Part shown: piece after piece, positions 5,506 to 60,980 of the stretch
Numbering within the stretch: position 1 is the stretch's first letter
Layout: every line of letters starts with the position of its first letter
DNA from: Rhizophagus irregularis
Taxonomy: Eukaryota
Length of the DNA stretch: 64,000 bases
Assembly: GCF_026210795.1 (NCBI RefSeq)
Contig: NC_089433.1
Coordinates: 2,170,001-2,234,000, forward strand
Reading direction: 5' to 3'
The notes under the pieces: generated by a model
Database searches by the model: none
What the model saw: only the letters and a program-made list of their open reading frames with translations
What the model was told of the DNA's origin: nothing
Made by a program: the position numbers and the translations under genes

Positions 5506-6622
5506 TTAAATGATAAAATATAATAGGTACATACATATAATATTATTTAAAATATAAATTATATCCATTTTTGGATTTGGATTTAAAAGAAAATTAATCG
5601 TAAGCTTATAGGGTATAATTACTGTGATAGCTGGTTGAACATTATTGGCATTATTTCTGAAAAATCAACAACATTTTAGCATATTATAAATACAGTGTAA
5701 TGTCTCACAAATAGGGATCTAGTAACAAAAAATACTCACTGCGGAGGAATGACAATTGGGACAATTGGCTGTATTGGCGGTATATCTATAAAATATAAAT
5801 AATGATATAGAAACATATATTACCCATCAACACAAATTTAAAATGATATGATCGTGTAACACATTTTATCAATCTTTGATATATTTTTAATATGTAAAAA
5901 CACTTCAAGTGTAAGGGGCAAAAGATATATTCGTTCTTAACATCATTTGATAATATCTTCTCTTTCAAAACAACATTGCTTTTAATTACTCATTAAGTTT
6001 CCTTCAATCAATGAATATACATATAAAAGTGCAAAGATCATCAAAAACCCAAGGCCCCAAACTGGCTCCAAACTGGCCCAAACTGAACCTACCTTATCTA
6101 TATAATATTACTTTTCAACTAGACAATAAATGTTAACTATCTTACAGATTACTCAACTATCTAACTACCTGACGCTGTCATGACGAACCTTACCGATATA
6201 TATTTTTGGACGTATTATAAACTGCATATTTTAAATTGAAACTTACTATTAAGTTCGGCAAATCTAAAATTTTTAAATCCCATATTTTATTATTAACTTA
6301 GAATAAAAAATTTAAATATATTACAAAGGAAGGAGAAAATTTTTTTTTTACTTTTTTCTACAATCTTGCGCTGTTTTCGTTTCAAGTAAAGTTCCGATTT
6401 TATTCCAATCTTGACCATGTTCGTTAACCAACTGAAGAAGTTGATTTATCTCCTACGCATTTTAGATATGATCATGATAAGCATTTTGTAATATATAATA
6501 TAATCTATAATTAAATTTCTTAGGAAAAAGTCGATTTAAAATGTGTACGTATACAGTACATGTTCAAACCAACAAGGACCTCGTCTTTGTAAATTGCGGG
6601 TTTGGTGTTGTTGCTGATTCAT
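5506..6622 (-). CDS. Single-repeat Myb/SANT protein with two C-terminal motif copies
   Basis: Exons 6622-6560, 6452-6352, 6263-6247, 5785-5740, 5656-5506. MNQQQHQTRNLQRRGPCWFEH|EINQLLQLVNEHGQDWNKIGTLLETKTAQDCRKK|FAELN|..YKLTINFLLNPNPKMDIIYILN. The middle exon choice is uncertain. Confidence 0.78.
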
Positions 6623-11029: not shown

Positions 11030-13108
11030 GCATTTTTTTTAAAAAAAAAATTCTTAATTTTGTATTAATATTTATATTAAAATTATTTAATTTAAAAAAG
11101 TAAGAATATTTTTAATACTAAATAAACGTAAATTCCTGTTCGATAACATGATTTATTATTATTATTATTTTTTTTTAAAAAAAAAGCACTAATGAATTTG
11201 GACACTAATTATTCGTTTAAAACCTGATAAATCACTTCTTTCAAGTTATAAAACAAGTTGATCTACTTCTCCCGCAGACAAAAAAAAAAGTTTTTTGTTA
11301 TGTTGTGTAATTCACATGGTAGTATGTTTGTAACGTAAACGTAAATGATATGGTATCGGAAAAGCAAATGTGAATCCTATTAGGCTACACAAACATAATA
11401 TTCGGCAAATCTTATTTGAAATTTCGAACCGAAAATGAAAGGTCGAAAAAGAGAAACAGATTACCAAAAACGCAACATCGTAAGCTATTATTATTAATAA
11501 AATGTGAATTACATTATGCATAAGCTATGATAACAAGAATAACCTAGATATTGTCATCTTATGTTTTTGACCTTTTTTTGCGCACGACCTCTATGGAATC
11601 TTTTAGTTATTAATTTTCCGATTTTATATTTTAAAAAAAAAATGAAAACGCCAATTTTTTTTTTATGTCAACCAATCGAATCTTCCGCAGCTTGTGCTAA
11701 CTAAATTTAACATATTTCATAAACTTTAGTTATTTATAGTAATAATTGCTTACGCCCAAAACTCAATATCATGTACGGTATAACCGTTCTTGGGAAAATA
11801 TCACTATTAAATCTTTTTTTTTTGTGTCGTTTTTTCATTATGTTTTTTGCGTTTCGTATTACTTGGTATAATATTATGGAATTAGCCGAAAATAGTAACA
11901 ATTATGAAGAAAACCTTACAAAAACATTTTAATATAAAAGTTCGAAAAAAAAAAAATATTCATATAATTATTGTGCAATGTAACTTCTGGCGTTTTTTTT
12001 TTATTGTCATTGAACAAGATTCTTATTCGTTGATATAATACTTGTGACACGAAGTTCTATACATTTCTTAGGTTTGCACAAATAGTAATAGTGTTTCCGA
12101 CTCAAAAATTTGAGTTAACTACAATTGGTCTTTGATGTTACAAAAAAAAAAATTTCTCTCTTTTAAAGTATTACTTTTTTTGATCAAGCTTCAAAGGTTA
12201 AACTTATCCTGGCAACTCAAAAGATTATATATTATATACACTGTATGCATACAACATTCTAATTTCTATAATACTAGGGGGGTAATCCAAGTTGAATGTA
12301 AATGAATGGGTTGCCAATTTTAGTATAATATATTATATCTATTATATCATTGTAATAATAATAGTAATTTAACGTGATCATAAATATTTAGTTTCGTGCA
12401 ACCAAAAAAAATGTAACGGAGTAAATTTTAAACTGTCCCGGATTATAAGCCTATACTAAATAAAGTATGTATACAGAAAATCTTCATTCATCCAATTTCT
12501 AACTTTAGTAAACTTCTAAAGTTCTTGCCCGTATTACGCTGGTTTTTTTGGCGGGATAATGAAAAAATGAAATATAAATATGCCCTGTTTCCTTCAATGT
12601 AATAACCTTATGTAACTCGAAATTTTTTTTTTTTTTTGAATTTTTCTTTTTTTTGTCAACCTTTTTAAGTACTATTTAAATTGTCAACATTCTTTAAATA
12701 TTATTAGTGTAAGAAGAAGTGAGATATATCGTTGTTTCTCTGTGAGAACTATTATACTTCTCTTGCACTATAATTTAATATTTTACTTATTCTACTGCTA
12801 CCAATATATAGCTAGTGGTTTATCGTACAATATTATCATCCTCATACTGTCACTCTTTTTCTTTCTTTATAACCGTTGTAAACATTTTATTAATATAATA
12901 TGGTAGGAAATCGTAAAGGAAGATGGATTCTTGACGTAAGTTTCTCATTATTAATTACTGCGGTTGTATAAATAATTATTCATGGTTGGTATCATTCATC
13001 TTATGCTTAAATTTCATCAATTTAAATGTTCAGGAGGATAGGTTATTAATCCGTCTCGTAGATGAATATAGCGTTGATGGGGAAGATATTGATTGGTCTG
13101 TCTTGGAA
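6879..13108 (+). repeat. ~3-kb tandem segmental duplication (copy 1 ~6879-9842, copy 2 ~9845-13108)
   Basis: Collinear matches throughout, e.g. agatctacagagaatgaaaggatttagg at ~6944 and ~9891, and the Myb first exon at 9656 and 12900. The copies differ by many substitutions and indels. Confidence 0.93.
9656..9842 (+). pseudogene. Truncated Myb pseudogene (5' fragment of the 12900 gene)
   Basis: MVGNRKGRWILD|EDRLLIRLVNDGEDIDWSVLE*. It has a 12-nt deletion relative to the paralogue and a TAA at the duplication junction. Confidence 0.88.
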
Positions 13109-14178
13109 CAACATTTTAAAGGTACTAGAGATTCCAAGCAGATTCGCGAGAGATGGGTTAATCATTTAAATCCCAGGAGTGAGTACTTGAAATTTTTTTT
13201 TTTTTTTTTTTTTTTTTGTTATTTTATTTTATGTTCGTATGTTAAAACAATAAACATTTTCTCTCTTTAGTTAAAAAGAGGAAATTTAGTGATGAAGAGA
13301 TTAAAATAATTGAAGATGAATGTTCTAAACATAAATTTAAGTGGGCCAGGATTGCAAAGAAAATTCCTAACGCAACACCACTTATGATCAAGAATTTTTA
13401 TAATAATAGACTAAAAAAGAAAAATCCCGCAAATAGAAGACTTAGTACTTCAGCCAATATTACTCCTTTTACCATTAATAATTTTAATCATAATCCAATT
13501 ACATCTACAACTACAACCAAATCTACCGTAGCTAATAATACAACTAATATTACTAATACTTTTAACACTATTAATACTACTACTAATATTAATCATAATC
13601 ATAATCATAATCATAATAATAATTATAATTATTATAATAACGAATATCTTCAGGAACAAGATTATAGTTATTATAGTGAATCTAATTTGAAGAGGAGTGA
13701 TAGTGCTAGAACTGTGGTTGCTGAAGAGGGTAGTTATTCTACTAAGGCTATGATTGCCGAAAGTAATTACTCCACTACCAATCTATCAAGACATAGTAGT
13801 ATAAGAAGCATAATGTCTAATAGTAGCGCAACAACCGTAGTCGAAAACGAACAAGAATATGACAAACATCAATTTTTTACTACTCAAATGTCCTCCTCTC
13901 AACTTCCATCTCCCCCTCCATCTGCAGGTAATACAACCAGCTTTCTTTTTAAAATATATATGTATTTATTTATTTATTTATTTACAAATATTCATTTAAT
14001 TTTATTTATTTATTTTTATATCATAGAAATGATAAATTACACTCCTACAGAGAATGGAAAATTGAACTTTCTTGCTACAGTTGCTAATATCATGAGCCAA
14101 AGCGAGCTCTCTTCTACAACCGCACCTTCATCACCGAAAAAGTCAGGAAAAATGTCAATAATGAATCTTCTTTCTTAA
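12900..14178 (+). CDS. Two-repeat (R2R3-like) Myb transcription factor with long N/T/S-rich tail ending KMSIMNLLS
   Basis: Exons 12900-12935, 13034-13178, 13271-13927, 14027-14178. Contains RKGRW..IDWSVLEQHFKGTRDSKQIRERWVNHLNP..KWARIAKKIPNATPLMIKNFYNNRLKKK. Confidence 0.92.
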
Positions 14179-16621: not shown

Positions 16622-17771
16622 ATGCCTCAGTTTTACCGACATCAATGGACTTACATTGTAAATATATTTATTAAAATATTAAATTGATTCAAAAATTTGA
16701 TCATGATCAATTTACATGACCATATATTTATTCATTTATAGGAGGAAATTCTCCTTATCCTGTTGGTCATTCTATTGGGCCGTAATTTGAGTAATTGGAG
16801 GCGAATTTCTCGTCTACTTAATAGAAGTGTTTTTCAGTGTAGGAGGAGGTATGTAAATATTTTTTCTCGTATGACGCAGCATATAATACCCAGGTACTAT
16901 TTACTGATCGAGTACTGTGTGTAGCGATATACGATAAAATTCTATTTTGACACATGAAATTCATCTTCGCTCTTTTGCATATGAAATTTTAGGTATTATG
17001 AAATTATAAATCAAGATAGTGGTAAGCACAACTCTTTTAAAATTTGTACTTGATTAGTATTTTATTGAAATGATCTCTCTGAACAGATTTATTAATATAT
17101 TTATTTTTTTTATTCCATTGGTATAGGGAGTGCTCGAAGGATTCGTAGAAGAGTTAATCAGAGAGTTTCTCAAGGACTTCGACCAATAGCTCTTGAAAGA
17201 CTCCTCCATGGAATTCTTTTAGCTCAGCAGTAAGTTCTTTATGTAAAATTATTTCTAATAAAAGAAGTGAATCGATGAAGTTGAACCCTCAAACCTTCAA
17301 ACCTTCCATCCTTCAAACCTTCCATCCTTTCATCCTTCCATCCTTCCATCAAAAATAGATGGATCAATTTCTACGTTTTCAAAATTTATGATTCTTCCCA
17401 TAAAGGTAGAAACGTATGTTTCCTTCCTAATTTTTTCATATGAGAGGATATCATAATCTTTGATAACAAATCATGCATCGTAATACTGTTAACTTGTAAT
17501 ATGAAACTGATCTTTATTTCTTTATTTTGATTACAGGAATAACACCATATCTCGTGATCCAAGAATGGATCTAAGTCATATTTTGAATACTTCTCGTGAT
17601 CTAAGTACTTCTAATTCCTCTCATGATTCACGAGATCCGAGAATGAATTTAAGTCATGTTTTAAATATTTTCCGAGATTCTAGGATGAATTTAAATCATA
17701 TTTTAAATTCTTCGCAAGATCCTAGAATGAATCTGAATTTTATTTTAAACAATTCCTTAAATCATGGCTAG
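16622..17771 (+). CDS. Single-repeat Myb/SANT protein with Arg-rich linker and four C-terminal motif copies
   Basis: Exons 16622-16657, 16742-16848, 16993-17021, 17127-17229, 17537-17771. HQWTYI|EEILLILLV..SNWRRISRLLNRSVFQCRRR|YYEII..(DPRMxLxxILN)x4. The frame is open across all junctions. Confidence 0.85.
17288..17350 (+). repeat. Intronic 8-bp minisatellite (cttcaaac/cttccatc)
   Basis: About 8 tandem units of cttc(a/c)a(a/t)c. Confidence 0.75.
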
Positions 17772-26379: not shown

Positions 26380-27305
26380 ATGAACACTAATCAACAGAAC
26401 CGACAATTTCGACAATTTCCACGCCAGCCTTGGAACGACAGAGTATGTACTTGTATTTTATAATAATTTTTCCCGTTTGTTTAACTAAATTTTAAAATTT
26501 TTCGTAAAAAAAAATATATCTAGGAGGATACCAATCTTATTTTTCTAGTAGATTTTATTGGTATAAATTGGGCACGAATATCTATTGTACTGGGAAGAAG
26601 TGCTTTACAATGCAGGAGGAGGTATGTACATAAAATTATATATTTTTAGTGAATAACGAAAGGTGGTGGTGATTGCTGGTATCGCTGTTGTTGTTATTGA
26701 AGTTTTATTCTTTTTTTTTTTTTTTACCAATTTATTAGGTATCTTAGACTTTTAGCTCTTGACAGTAAGTAATTATATCTTTGGTAAAATATTTTTAATA
26801 ATGATTTCTTTTATATTAATGACCTATTCATATATAATCATTTTACAGATATAGAAAGGTATCGAAGAATATTTCGTAGAAGAGTTAACCGAAGATTTCG
26901 TCAAAGGCATAATCTAGTATCTTTTCGAGGATTTTTCCAAGGAATTCAACTATTAGCTCGACGGTAAGTTTTTTTTTATTTTTTTTTTGTGGTGATAGTG
27001 GTAATATTAAAGAAACACAATGTTGTCAACAACGATGGCAGTATTGTTAGGTCATAATTCTTTCATTTTTTTAAAATAAAAATTTGCTGGTTCAATGGGA
27101 TCAGGATCTTGGACGTAAACTAATTATTAATTTAGAAAGATCGTAATAATTAGTATGATCTAAATTATAATATCACTCACTTCATAATAACCTTGATTAC
27201 AGAAATATCATCCCGACTCGCGATTATAGAATGGATCTGAATCATATTCTAAATACATCTCAGGATCATAGAATGAATATAAATTATATTTTGAGCGTGG
27301 AATAA
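26380..27305 (+). CDS. Single-repeat Myb/SANT protein with Arg-rich linker and two motif copies
   Basis: Exons 26380-26442, 26524-26621, 26739-26764, 26849-26962, 27203-27305. RQPWNDR|EDTNLIFLVDFIGINWARISIVLGRSALQCRRR|YLRLL..RDYRMDLNHILNTSQDHRMNINYILSVE*. Confidence 0.87.
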
Positions 27306-37558: not shown

Positions 37559-38362
37559 ATGAATCAAACAAACTTATTAGTAGTTTCGATTAGAAACCAG
37601 TGGACACCTGGTGTAAATAAACTTTTAGTTTTATATTCTTATTTCTTTTTTTTTAAAAAAAAAAAATAATAATTTTTAACAATGAATACATATATATACA
37701 TATAAATAGGAAGATAGCCGATTAATAACTGCTGTAGATCGGTTTGGGGCCCGTAATTGGAATCGTATTTCCCTTGAAGTTAGGACCCGCAGTTCAACAG
37801 AATGCCAAGCAAGGTTTGTTCAATCATAAATTACTGCGTTGCTTATAACTTAGCATTTACATTAAATTATATAACTTTTTTATTAAAAGATGGCGTCAGA
37901 TAAATTTTAATAATGGTAAAGTAGCATATATTCTTTAAGTGGTCGGCTTAAGTGGTCGGTTTATTTGTAATTTTCAAAATTTTTTAAATATAATTTGTAC
38001 ATAGTGCATCGACCGAATAGAAGATTGAATCAAGGTCTTTTCGACGTTGCTAGAAGAAATTTATATTACATTAGACCTCAAAGATATGCATGTAAGATTC
38101 AAATATTTATTTATATGTTTTACAATTTATTATTATTATTATAATAATGAAATATTTTATTATTATCTGTTATCTGTTATTAGTAAATTTGAATCAACGT
38201 CGATCATTTCAGTTAGGACAAACAATGCAAGCAATGGCAAATCCTATTCAAAATACAATGTCTCTAAATTGTATTTTAACTCATGATAGAAATATTCGAA
38301 TGGAGTTAGGATATATTTTGGAAAATCCCGTACCACATTACTTTCGTAATGACCCTAATTAA
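37559..38362 (+). CDS. Single-repeat Myb/SANT protein with two motif copies
   Basis: Exons 37559-37612, 37710-37813, 37890-37915, 38005-38091, 38184-38362. NQWTPG|EDSRLITAVDRFGARNWNRISLEVRTRSSTECQAR|WRQI..TMSLNCILTHDRNIRMELGYILE. Confidence 0.87.
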
Positions 38363-39644: not shown

Positions 39645-41095
39645 ATGTCCTCTTCTACCGAACAAGTTAAAGGATTTGATACGGAAGAACTCATTAATTT
39701 TTTAAAAGGACGAAATTTACATCTTAATGAAACTCATTATAATTCCCTTCGCCATAAGGAGATCGCCGGGTCAGACTTCCTTAATTACACTCGGGAAGAA
39801 CTTAAAGGTCTCGGATTGGCAATAGGACCAACAAAAAGAATCGAACAGTTGATTAATGAATTGAATACTCAAAGTAACGGTAAGTTCTATAAAATTATTA
39901 TGGATAATTATAAAACCTAAATCACTAAATGACTAATAAATATAAAAATTATTATTTTAATTATTATTTTAAACACACACTCTCTCCTAGATGTGTTAAA
40001 AAAAGGTAAAAAATAAAATCATTTCGAATTTTATTAAAGAATATGCTATTTACTTTTTTTTAAAAAAATAACAATGTTCTCTTTACATTACAAACACCCA
40101 AAGAAGTTGAAGGGTTGGATACGGAAGGACTCATCAATTTTTTAAAAGAACGACAAAATTTACACCTTAATGAAACACATTATAATATCTTCCGTCATAA
40201 AGAGATCACTGGGTCAGACTTCCTTAATTATACTAAAGAAGAATTTGAAGGCTTTGGATTAGCATCAGGGCCAGCAAAAAGAATCGAACAGTTAGTTAAT
40301 GAGTTGAATAATCAAAGTAAGTTCTATAAAATTTATACATTCACCAAATGTCTTTTATATATGCATATATTTTATTTACACATTATTTATTTATTAAATA
40401 ATAACTTTAGTAATTTTCAATTTGTGGACAACTGCTGTAAGCAAAAATTTTTTAATAAGGGTAATCTTTGATTCTTGATTCGCTGATCACAGGCTATGAT
40501 AATGAAAAAATTATGTTGAAGCATGGTTACGGTTGTGTTCGTGGAAATAAGGTGCCCAAAAATAGCATTGGCGAATCATGAATTGTTTAGTGAGTACTTA
40601 ATATTAATCAAGTTGATAACAAAAATAGGAAGATAATCGATTGGTAGCCGTTATAAATCGATTCGGTTCCCGCAATTGGAATCGGATTGCCCGTAAAATG
40701 GGAAATCGTAATCCAATTGAATGTCAAAGAAGGTTATTGTCACATTATTATATGCTAACTGATAAATTTAACTTAATTTACTAAAAGCTGATTTTTTTTT
40801 AAAAAAAAAAAAAGATGGAATTTGATAAATTTTAACGGTAAGATAACTTTTATGTAGCGATAAACTTCTTGCGAATAACTCTAATTTATTTTATATAATT
40901 GTACATATTATAGCTAATCGACCGAGTAGAAATGGTACTAGAAGTTTACATCATAGAAATACATGTAAGAATTTTAAATGTTTTATATATTTCTTTTACA
41001 AGGTATTAAATAATCTTACCGTTATTGATCAAAATACAGCATCTACTAGAGACGTTCGAATGACATTAGGATATGTTTTGAATACATATTCTTGA
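39645..41095 (+). CDS. Chimeric SAM-SAM-Myb/SANT protein ending RMTLGYVLN
   Basis: Exons 39645-39879 (SAM1), 39991-40005, 40104-40316 (SAM2), 40411-40436 (IIFNLWTTA), 40629-40732 (EDNRLVAVINRFGSRNWNRIARKMGNRNPIECQRR), 40815-40837, 40914-40964, 41040-41095. All introns are GT..AG and the frame is continuous. Confidence 0.75.
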
Positions 41096-43535
41096 TTAAA
41101 ACAGGATCACAAAAAAATTTTACAAAGGTACGGCTCTAAAAAATTTTTTAAAAGTAGTTATTAATATGTCTAATCTTCTAATTTTGTTAAATTTCTTTAG
41201 AATAGACTAAAAAAAAATGGTGCATAAATTCTTTCAATTCAAAATAATAATTATTTTCTTCATCTATATTCCTTCAATTAAAACAATTAGAACATCAGTT
41301 AATAAAATATGATAAAATATTAGATGTGCAAACAGAAAGACTATTTATAAAATAAGATCACGTATTTTAAAAAAACGTCTTACTTACTAAAGGAAGGGCC
41401 GGAAATGACGCCGATAGCTGATGTTTCACATTTCCTTTTTGGGAAATTAATGCCGACCAGAATTATGTTATGATTTTTACATTTCCTGAGAATGGGAGTT
41501 AAAATTAAATGTCGATTATTTTTGGCCATCCCGTTGTTCTCTAAATATGTAATAATTTTCACTAGGGGGGGAGTGTCTCGGATATCGGAGGATCGGATAT
41601 AATACGCCAGTTAATCCTCGAAGATAATCTATAATCTATGGCGGATCGTATGTCGCTCTCCCATCAGTTCCATTTTGAAATTCATTCAGCATACTTATCT
41701 TGCTTGGCATATTATTAATAAACATTTTTGGTAAATCCTTCCTTGTACGTAAAATAAGTAATGCTATTCAAAAATTTTAAATTTTAGAAGTTACCAATAA
41801 AAGGAATGTGTTGTTATTTTGTATTTTTAATAAAGTTGAAATCATCTTTTAAAAAGCTTAATAGGATCTATAGGATCAGAGAGTCTATCCATTTTTTAAA
41901 ATGAATGTTCTGTTTAATCCTTTAAATGGATAAATTTGATAATTTCAAATTTTCGCTCGAAATAGTAGATAAGGAATTCTTTAATGCTCTCAATTCTCGT
42001 AAGAACCGTGGGAAATTGGGAAATGGATTATTTTTAATACTTTAAATGTGCAACCCAAATTATTTTCTGACAACAAGTCATAATTCTAATATATTCTCAC
42101 ACTCTCTTTCCTCTGACTTTATAAGTAAAGAATTATTTCTAAGTTGAAGTTGAGTTAATTGAGTTTGTAATTGTTGAATAGTTTGTAATTTTTTGGCAGG
42201 CATCAAATTACTTAATACGGAGATAATAATTAATATTTAAGGTTTTTAAAATTTTGTCAGAGGATACATATCGATAATTGTCATACTTAATTCTTAACGC
42301 TCTGATCCATGATGTGCATCTTTTCATTGTAATATTTTATGATTTACCGGGTACTAATAAATGCATTTAAGAAAATTTCATTGATTAATAAAATTTATTA
42401 CTAGCGGATAAGCGGAAAATGCAAATATTATTGGACGATTAAACTTACCTTCAGTAATTGACAAGTAATAATTTTCGATAGGTTCATCCGGGGATAACCG
42501 ACTATCAAACTCTAATGGGAAATAAAACTATGACATTTTTGTGAAACAGTTCTTGTTAGGAATAAGAAGCTATATTGTATTAACTTTTAGAGATTACAAA
42601 CAAACAAACGGAGTCTATAGAAAAGTCGAGATGTTTCATATTTCATGCAAGCATTGATAATTGAGCTTATTGAGTTTATTTATACTATGGTGGATGATAA
42701 TCAGTAAATCATTTAAAAATAAAGACAAATTTGAAAGGAGAAAAAAAAAAAATCTCGAACTTCCATTATGTTTCGTAATTAACTTTTTCAGAGAAAGTGT
42801 AAAAGTTAAGATATTACAACTCCTTTACATTTATATGCAAATATGAAAAATTTCTTTCGTCATACATATAAATATAGACATTTTATCCGTGTATCAGAAT
42901 TGAATGATTTTTATAAATTTGGAATGTTAGTTGTAAATCCCTACGAGCGGTTGCTTTTTTGAAATGTTTGTAATACAGATAGGCCGAAATATTTCTGTTA
43001 TGAAACTTATTAATTCGTTAAAATTCACTTTTTAAGAATGAAGTTTGCATAATTACAAACTCAGGTAATACGTTGTACAATTATTTATAAATAAAATCGA
43101 ACTTTACCATAACTATCTTACCTTTTTCCAATAATCTTCTGGAGACATGAGACCGAAAAAAAATACAAAGAAGAATTTCGGATAATACTAATTTTACACA
43201 ACAAGTGAATCAGCCCCGATCAGTCACTGATTACTATACCTTTGAAAAAATTATTTCTTGATCTATCCTATTAGTATTACTTTATTTATTACAATTGAAA
43301 AAATGGTACTTTCCGTTTTAATATCAAAATAATTATTATAATTGGAAAGGTTTGAAAGAAGAATTATTATATAAATAATTCAAAATTTCTCTATAAAAAA
43401 TGACCAGTTTCAATAATATTTGAAAATATCGCAATTAGATAGATTTCTTTTCTAATTAAAAAATCGTTATTCTAGTAAATATATATTATATTATATATTA
43501 TCTTTCGTTATTCGTATAAGAAATCTTCTAATAAA

Positions 43536-46504: not shown

Positions 46505-46562
46505 TTAATTTAGAATGTAATTTAATGACATTCTAACATCACGACGTGAAGTTGCATTTCGA
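46505..46562 (-). other. Orphan Myb-family terminal exon (RNATSRRDVRMSLNYILN*)
   Basis: AG acceptor followed by T-CGA-AAT-GCA. It is homologous to, and in the same phase as, the last exon 48209-48140. I found no Myb exons of its own upstream. Confidence 0.7.
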
Positions 46563-60239: not shown

Positions 60240-60980
60240 ATGTTGCGTTCAATCTTAGCACGAAACTTTGGTTTGATATCTCAAACTACAACTCGTGCAA
60301 GCACTCGTCCTATAGCATTTAATCTTTCACGTTCATACCATGAAAAGGTTAGTTTGTTTAAAACGGTTTATTTAAATTATCAGTAATTATGTACTTGATT
60401 TTGCCAAAATTTTATTTTTTCCTCTCATTATAATTAGAATATTTAATTAATAAAGAAAATTAATTCATAATTCCTTGTAGGTTATTGATCATTATGAACG
60501 TCCTCGTAATGTTGGATCATTACCAAGAACAGATTCCGATGTAGGAACTGGACTAGTTGGTGCACCAGCATGTGGTGATGTTATGAAACTTCAAATTCGA
60601 GTTGATGAACGAACTAATAAAATTGTAGACGTTAAATTTAAGACGTTTGGATGTGGTTCCGCGATTGCTTCTTCAAGTTATATGACAGAACGTGTACGAG
60701 GGATGTCTTTAGACGAAGCCTCAAAAATTAAAAACACTGAAATTGCAAAAGAGTTGAGCCTACCACCTGTCAAACTTCATTGTTCAAGTAAGTCTTAACA
60801 TTGTTAATTCAACTTTACTTAATATATTAATTTTAACAATTATTTTGGTTTATATTTTTAGTGCTCGCAGAAGATGCTATTAAATCTGCTATTAAAGATT
60901 ATAAGAGTAAACGTAGTGCATTATCAGCGCCAAATGTCAATAATATTAGTCAACAATCTTCAACACAGGCTACTGCATAA
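60240..60980 (+). CDS. ISU1: Mitochondrial iron-sulfur cluster scaffold IscU/Isu1
   Basis: Exons 60240-60347, 60481-60787, 60862-60980. YHEK|VIDHYERPRNVGSL..GAPACGDVMKLQI..FGCGSAIASSS..LPPVKLHCS|MLAEDAIK. Confidence 0.97.

Follow-up and report, generated by a model that had tools for sequence, protein, structure and literature searches.

The window, that is, the whole stretch of 64,000 nucleotides of DNA of the root-symbiotic fungus Rhizophagus irregularis that was analysed (contig NC_089433.1, positions 2,170,001 to 2,234,000), is eukaryotic DNA with a GC content of 25% and no N. Between positions 39645 and 41095 it carries a gene whose joined model consists of 8 exons with a CDS of 723 nt, encoding a protein of 240 aa; there is no internal stop and all introns are GT-AG. 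The protein contains, in this order, a first SAM domain (SAM1), a second SAM domain (SAM2), a single Myb repeat with three Trp and a C-terminal RMxLxxVL motif. The features of the gene and its neighbour are:

37559..38362, plus strand: single-Myb gene next to the fusion, itself without SAM; probable sister of the Myb part of the fused gene; orthologue of RclHR1_06850008 of R. clarus
39645..39879, plus strand: exon 1, ATG and SAM1, phase-1 donor; Pfam, translation, SAM1-derived RNA contigs in runs X17 (1) and X18 (1)
39991..40005, plus strand: exon 2, micro-exon of 15 nt, DVLKK linker; joint in an X17 contig
40074..40076, plus strand: relic ATG of the second SAM unit, now intronic; out of frame with SAM2
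40104..40316, plus strand: exon 3, SAM2, AAG acceptor, phase-1 donor; Pfam, RNA contigs
40411..40436, plus strand: exon 4, 26 nt, first Myb Trp, phase-0 donor; remnant of the first exon of the family; RNA-contig joints
40629..40732, plus strand: exon 5, main Myb repeat exon with the second Trp and the recognition helix; PF00249 at 36.7 bits, RNA contigs
40815..40837, plus strand: exon 6, 23 nt, third Myb Trp; X17 contig with 2 of 22 letters mismatched
40914..40964, plus strand: exon 7, basic linker; X17 contig
41040..41095, plus strand: exon 8, C-terminal RMTLGYVLN and stop; X17 contig reads through

Both SAM exons end in a phase-1 GTAAGT donor, and exon 4 has a TAG acceptor and a phase-0 GT donor, the latter as in the other array genes. 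RMTLGYVLN is encoded at 41057-41083 and the stop codon ends at 41095. An earlier note on this DNA had proposed that two near-duplicate SAM exons join in frame, via the 26-nt exon, to a Myb repeat. This was confirmed, and in the one contig that covers the SAM1-SAM2 joint the 15-nt micro-exon (39991-40005) lies between the two SAM exons. The note had overlooked this micro-exon as well as the second, dead ATG (40074). Its description holds for the Myb exon at 40629-40732 and for the terminal RMTLGYVLN; exons 40815-40837 and 40914-40964 are additions to it. It had also read the 26-nt exon correctly as one with an AG acceptor, the first Myb Trp, a phase-0 donor and no obvious start codon. Among the nine single-Myb genes examined, an in-frame Met was found in the first Myb exon of all 8 other array members and is missing in the fused gene; between the SAM2 donor and the first Myb Trp there is no in-frame ATG, both ATGs of the intron ahead of that exon lying in other frames. 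As had been suggested, this is a gene of the array that is spliced to SAM exons and lacks the start codon of its siblings.

Splicing was assessed with assembled RNA contigs from 4 of the 24 listed runs, belonging to three studies and aligned to 40060-41130, so that exon 1 lay outside the aligned range; the strict rule for a bridged joint was at least 31 letters on both sides. Joint 40316/40411 (SAM2 to the 26-nt exon, GT..AG) was bridged in 2 of the 4 runs, from two studies. Joint 40436/40629 (26-nt exon to Myb, GT..AG) was found in 3 of the 4 runs, with at least 31 letters on both sides in X16 only, while X17 and X18 agreed with shorter sides. In X16 and X18 (two studies) a single contig each runs through SAM2, the 26-nt exon and Myb. 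A contig of X17 (the third study) runs from SAM1 through the 15-nt exon 39991-40005 into SAM2; its first part is SAM1 by letter in 19 of the 20 listed differences, and the sole exception matches a Ser/Ala variant of database models P0003 and P0007. A second X17 contig contains the 26-nt exon, Myb, 40815-40837, 40914-40964 and the sequence from 41040 through the tail motif, after which it has an in-frame insertion of 15 nt. Joint 40964/41040 and the path from 40732 over exon 6 to 40914 were each found in 1 of the 4 runs. Run X15 yielded five short partial matches and no joints, and in the four runs no single contig spans all eight exons or the whole CDS. The depth of the contigs was low (2-4), which is no measure of expression. 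The SAM-SAM-Myb fusion is real and forms one expressed, spliced transcript unit, in line with the claim of the note that the SAM and Myb parts share one transcript.

That SAM and Myb are separate genes, or that the joins are artefacts of annotation or assembly, deserves very little credence. The reading can draw on three public models (P0002, P0008 and P0009) that stop short of the Myb exon, and on the nature of the RNA data, which are assembled contigs in which the SAM1-SAM2 joint via the micro-exon comes from one contig of one run. It is, however, already largely refuted by the single X16 and X18 contigs that cross from SAM2 to Myb over GT..AG joints, by the lack of an in-frame ATG for a standalone Myb gene and by the presence of the fusion in R. 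clarus. Furthermore, the longest run of identical bases between the two SAM units is 20 nt, which argues against a chimera made in a 31-mer assembly graph.

The translation of SAM2 is 100% identical to R. irregularis database models (5 matches among 76 candidates), so the gene is already in the databases, as an unnamed or hypothetical protein. The public exon models of the fused gene conflict: of 9 fused models in the databases, 5 contain the micro-exon, as does R. diaphanus model P0008, and 4 of the 9 end in the tail motif, as does the sole RNA contig that covers this end. Four database models remove RMTLGYVLN through an alternative intron (41054-41105) and end in DHKKILQRID; if real, they would represent an isoform lacking the putative repression motif. 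This intron was not seen in the one contig covering that end, and neither alternative-splice-site form (HGYGCVRGNK insert, DHKKILQRID end) was seen in the contigs of the four runs, although such forms could still exist.

At least nine single-Myb genes lie dispersed between 16.6k and 53.1k of the window; they share a phase-0 intron behind W-x-x-x and carry RMx[LI]xx[VIL]L at the C-terminus. There are also three weaker Myb-like exons, at 6452(-), 22158(+) and 23970(+). A Myb gene with apparently two repeats (12935-14175) lies inside a local duplication of 6.9-13.1 kb and is a possible parent of the single-repeat array. The exon at 60481-60795 we take, by its motif, to encode an IscU/ISU1-like iron-sulfur scaffold. 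The tail motif is constant across the array (RMSLEYVL in R. clarus); as R-M-x-[LI]-x-x-[VIL]-[LI], a pattern derived from these same sequences, it occurs in 14 copies in the window versus 0-2 in 30 shuffles. Two array genes carry it in tandem, one with four copies and another with two (17562-17750, 27228-27295), which suggests selection for motif dosage. No Myb exon was found adjoining the copies at 46534(-) and 42490(-); the latter may have come about by chance or terminate an unrelated ORF.

In the fused gene, the Myb Trp residues are at W160, W180 and W199, and PF00249 reaches 47.5 bits on the full model (cut-off 24.4). There is a single repeat only, below the two or more tandem repeats that define R2R3 and 3R-Myb proteins. 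The histone-binding surface of SANT domains is acidic, unlike the Myb repeat of the fused gene, which is basic (pI 11.8), a feature that is only suggestive of DNA binding. Counted against a DNA-binding repressor is that the 'GKQCRE' stretch of c-Myb R2 reads 'PIECQR' here. Between R. irregularis and R. clarus, 22 of 39 residues of the Myb exon are kept, versus 31 of 39 in the unfused neighbour (p=0.051), reflecting either relaxed constraint or changed specificity. The spacing of the MxLxxVL tail resembles that of IxIxxLL and equals that of the EH1-like pattern [VI]xx[IL][LM], whose strict residues this copy misses. In PMC4943189, IxIxxLL is given as the Tup1-binding motif of MATalpha2, and the enrichment of the strict [VI]xx[IL][LM] pattern is called not robust by its author, Copley.

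The two SAM exons are near-duplicates, as the first description had it, with 81% nt identity over 242 nt and 54 of 69 aligned residues identical. Pfam SAM_1 (PF00536; cut-off 23) scores 19.3 bits for SAM1 and 23.2 bits for SAM2 as single exons and 36.5 bits, in two stretches, for the full model P0006; it does not detect the R. clarus SAM. Over 69 codons, SAM1 versus SAM2 gave dS 0.51, dN 0.12 and dN/dS 0.23 (Fisher p 0.0003; bootstrap pN/pS 0.15-0.57), values that show the signature expected of purifying selection on the two SAMs, part of which fold stability alone could explain. A single-sequence AF2 model of P0006 predicted two helical SAM blocks with pLDDT mostly 74-87; the Myb part was of low confidence (pLDDT about 50, pTM 0.39), and so was the orientation of the domains. 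Foldseek ranked the SAM of Scm first (probability 1.00, E 0.022), followed by the SAMs of Sfmbt, CNK2, L3MBTL3, PHC3 and DGK-delta (probability 1.00, E 0.02 or higher), with target TM values of 0.71-0.83 to several solved SAMs and no E below 0.001. The best PDB sequence matches of a SAM profile (E 1e-7 to 4e-4) were likewise the chromatin SAMs Scm (E 1e-7), Sfmbt and L3MBTL3. What these model and profile matches establish is a predicted five-helix SAM fold, not polymerisation. The G-P at the start of helix 5 is kept in the SAM family (G in 26 of 27 rows, P in 25 of 27).

A phmmer search with the R. clarus protein P0004 against 1.84 billion representatives gave 3807 matches at E up to 0.001. 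Among the best 150 of these, 3 had SAM and Myb (all Rhizophagus), 6 had SAM only and 141 Myb only; since SAM-only relatives ranked at 64 bits, a fused relative with the same type of SAM should have ranked as well, while a fusion whose SAM is divergent, or one hidden in the cluster of a representative, could have escaped. A near-length search (7 matches among 133 candidates) yielded no new protein with both domains, and a metagenome scan gave 113 pattern matches with 0 confirmed relatives. Full-text searches of the openly readable literature did not find the architecture for fungi, though the domain tables of genome papers might list it; a match there for sterile alpha motif, Myb and oligomerisation concerns plant Polycomb. 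The author of the earlier note did not know the architecture from fungi, and as far as these searches reach SAM+Myb is found only in Rhizophagus.

The SAM itself is widespread. A profile of eight rows retrieved 30 proteins of 204-2000 aa among 7994 candidates scored, 6 of which had supplied profile rows. They come from Paraglomus, Ambispora, Funneliformis, Gigaspora, Dentiscutata, Diversispora, Acaulospora, Cetraspora, Entrophospora, Glomus and Rhizophagus. The SAM is N-terminal, starting within the first 30 aa, in 26 of the 30, and only 2 of the 30 have Myb. Pfam named a kinase (P0191), a RING (P0154) and sub-threshold NTPases (P0058, P0192) as partner domains, most partners being unnamed; several others look by motif like what we take to be restriction-endonuclease or NYN nuclease folds. 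Atlas clusters of the module are mostly Mucoromycota, and a search of the Atlas by features gave no usable match. SAM headers are reportedly among the CRN header domains listed by Zhang et al. 2016; SAM as a whole word has 0 occurrences in PMC6131194. R. irregularis also has a second, independent tandem-SAM protein family (P0138 / P0170).

The promiscuity of this module bears on what the SAMs of the fused gene do. They might serve as a hetero-interaction tag, forming no homo-polymers on DNA but docking the Myb factor to other Glomeromycota proteins with a SAM head, such as those with a kinase, a RING, a STAND-like NTPase or a nuclease-like part, and these proteins would sequester or activate it. 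The same SAM heads many unrelated proteins, the kinase, RING and sub-threshold NTPase partners among them, and heterodimers of SAMs (Ph-Scm, Scm-Sfmbt, CNK-HYP) account for several of the best structural matches. The fungal Ste11 and Ste50 SAMs pair heterotypically, a pairing cited in PMC9815663. We nevertheless regard this reading as somewhat unlikely: no partner for the SAM came to light, a gain in valency explains its doubling at least equally well, and the Rhizophagus SAM-Myb SAMs form a branch of their own (91/94) and lack several charges common in the SAM family.

The history of the fusion was examined by comparison with R. clarus, whose gene RclHR1_06850007 (P0004, 209 aa; a gene model only) has one SAM, Myb and the RMSLEYVL tail. 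The adjoining locus tag there, RclHR1_06850008 (P0042), matches the neighbour gene of R. irregularis at 80% over 87-139. As the neighbour orthologues adjoin the fusion in both species, the position is syntenic, which makes the fusion older than the separation of R. irregularis and R. clarus. Exon shuffling stands as the likely origin, as first proposed, but the description of the event as recent does not, the fusion being shared with R. clarus at the syntenic position; only the doubling of the SAM may be younger. The single R. clarus SAM is nearer SAM2 (56/70 identical) than SAM1 (49/69). In the trees, the branch joining SAM1 and SAM2 had support of 86/83 in one case and 45/50 in another, and grouping SAM2 with the R. 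clarus SAM was not rejected (p-AU 0.21), so that the trees give no date for the duplication.

The relic ATG at 40074 lies 32 nt before the Val codon and its frame stops after 23 codons. Its upstream context is like that of the ATG at 39645 (2 of 1168 other ATG contexts score as high), and R. clarus has an in-frame start at the matching position. Because the second copy retains this frameshifted ATG, the SAM pair looks like a first-exon duplication. Two metagenome proteins from another organism (P0016 / P0169, residues 10-26) have a SAM2-like exon, 82% identical, with an N-N-V-L read-through before the SAM, hinting that the inner ATG may already have been out of frame in that lineage. On the Myb side, the 26-nt exon with its upstream bases found its best nucleotide alignment among the eight siblings in the first exon of the neighbour (score 52.5); 0 of 300 shuffles scored as high, in a control that is lenient for such AT-rich DNA. 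This match is consistent with an acceptor recruited inside the old first exon. A Myb tree of 11 rows had no supported branch, so the case for the neighbour as sister is built on its syntenic and adjacent position and on the similarity of the first exons; the array member at 48.9k is as close in the Myb core (21 identities versus 20 for the neighbour).

These observations suggest the following course. A tandem copy of an array Myb gene would have gained a phase-1 SAM first exon from the widespread Glomeromycota module, joined via an acceptor inside the old Myb first exon. The whole SAM first exon with its leader would then have been duplicated and its inner ATG would have lost its frame, and a new acceptor at 40103 together with the micro-exon would have kept both SAMs in frame.

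Given an old first exon with no in-frame ATG, what the captured SAM exon mainly supplied could have been a promoter and a start codon, rescuing a Myb duplicate that had lost its ATG, the SAM being a tolerated passenger and the protein working like its unfused siblings or doing little. The promiscuity of the module, the confinement of the fusion to one genus, the low contig depth (again no measure of expression) and the wide disagreement among gene models would fit such an origin. We judge it unlikely, as the SAM is better kept between species (56/70) than the Myb (23/41), the two SAMs have the dN/dS of 0.23 given above, to which fold stability could contribute, and R. diaphanus P0008 retains both SAMs and the micro-exon.

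Our preferred reading, held tentatively with a probability of roughly 0.45, is that the gene encodes a SAM-oligomerised single-Myb transcriptional repressor working like LEAFY or TEL/Yan. Through contacts between their SAMs, several copies of the Myb domain would be gathered on DNA, and a Tup1-type co-repressor would be brought in by the tail motif. Since a lone Myb repeat has weak binding, oligomerisation through the SAMs would raise avidity at sites that are weak or repeated, as has been shown for LEAFY. The RNA joints, the open frame, the R. clarus orthologue, the dN/dS of the SAMs, the basic three-Trp Myb, the likeness to Scm, Sfmbt and L3MBTL3, the helix-5 G-P, the spacing of the tail motif and the LEAFY precedent were counted as favouring it. 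Counted against it were the weak likeness to Scm (23-31% identity), the divergence of the Myb, the misfit to the strict motif, the presence of the motif in only 4 of 9 models and the lack of a full-span contig. Many SAMs are monomeric or bind other partners, which also weighs against a polymer.

A wider proposal, which we consider quite improbable, is that a polymerising factor of the LEAFY/TEL type arose independently in Rhizophagus when a SAM head of its signalling and nuclease-like proteins was moved onto a Myb repressor and then doubled, the SAM both polymerising on chromatin and co-assembling with other SAM-headed proteins. If true, an expanded SAM-headed module would be wired directly to transcription.

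The locus presents stepwise domain shuffling with its intermediates visible, namely an adjoining unfused sibling, one SAM in R. clarus and two SAMs in R. irregularis. Owing to this natural series of 0, 1 and 2 SAMs, the effect of an oligomerisation module on a transcription factor is directly testable. Beyond this gene, the locus draws attention to a SAM module that occurs across Glomeromycota proteomes and has yet to be characterised. What is new, as far as the searches reach, is SAM+Myb in a fungus, in one genus; the design of SAM plus DNA binding is known, and the protein is in databases, unnamed.

Plants and animals have transcription factors that oligomerise through SAMs, and the fungal SAM proteins Ste11, Ste50, Boi and Vts1 act in signalling or RNA binding. 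TEL/ETV6 and Yan resemble the Rhizophagus gene in combining a SAM with a helix-turn-helix-type DNA-binding domain and, as predicted for the latter, in their repressor logic; they differ in having a PNT-type SAM and ETS, whereas the Rhizophagus gene has Myb. There was no ETS-factor SAM among the 16 PDB matches listed, which were of the Scm/Sfmbt/L3MBTL3/Ph type; Pfam finds Myb and no ETS or LFY domain, and the gene is not a member of the LEAFY or TEL/Yan families. LEAFY shares the N-terminal SAM on a DNA-binding factor, sequence-specific in its case, with both domains in one polypeptide; it has another DNA-binding domain, an unrelated origin and one SAM, and its oligomerisation is proven, whereas that of the Rhizophagus gene is predicted. 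According to PMC4844672, where Yan is discussed too, SAM oligomers aid binding to low-affinity sites and closed chromatin. The Polycomb-group proteins Scm, Sfmbt, Ph and L3MBTL3 have the closest solved SAM structures by profile and fold; their SAMs are C-terminal, on MBT or zinc-finger chromatin proteins, and about 20-31% identical, a likeness that implies no orthology. The Glomeromycota SAM-headed proteins have a SAM of the same family, an unnamed module that Pfam SAM_1 matches weakly; it shows 31-54% identity to SAM2 and in most cases sits at the N-terminus. They differ in their kinase, RING, NTPase-like and presumably nuclease-like partners, Myb occurring only in the Rhizophagus gene. The other 8 local Myb genes have their own ATG and no SAM, but these single-repeat genes share with the fused gene the phase-0 intron after W-x-x-x and the type of C-terminal motif.
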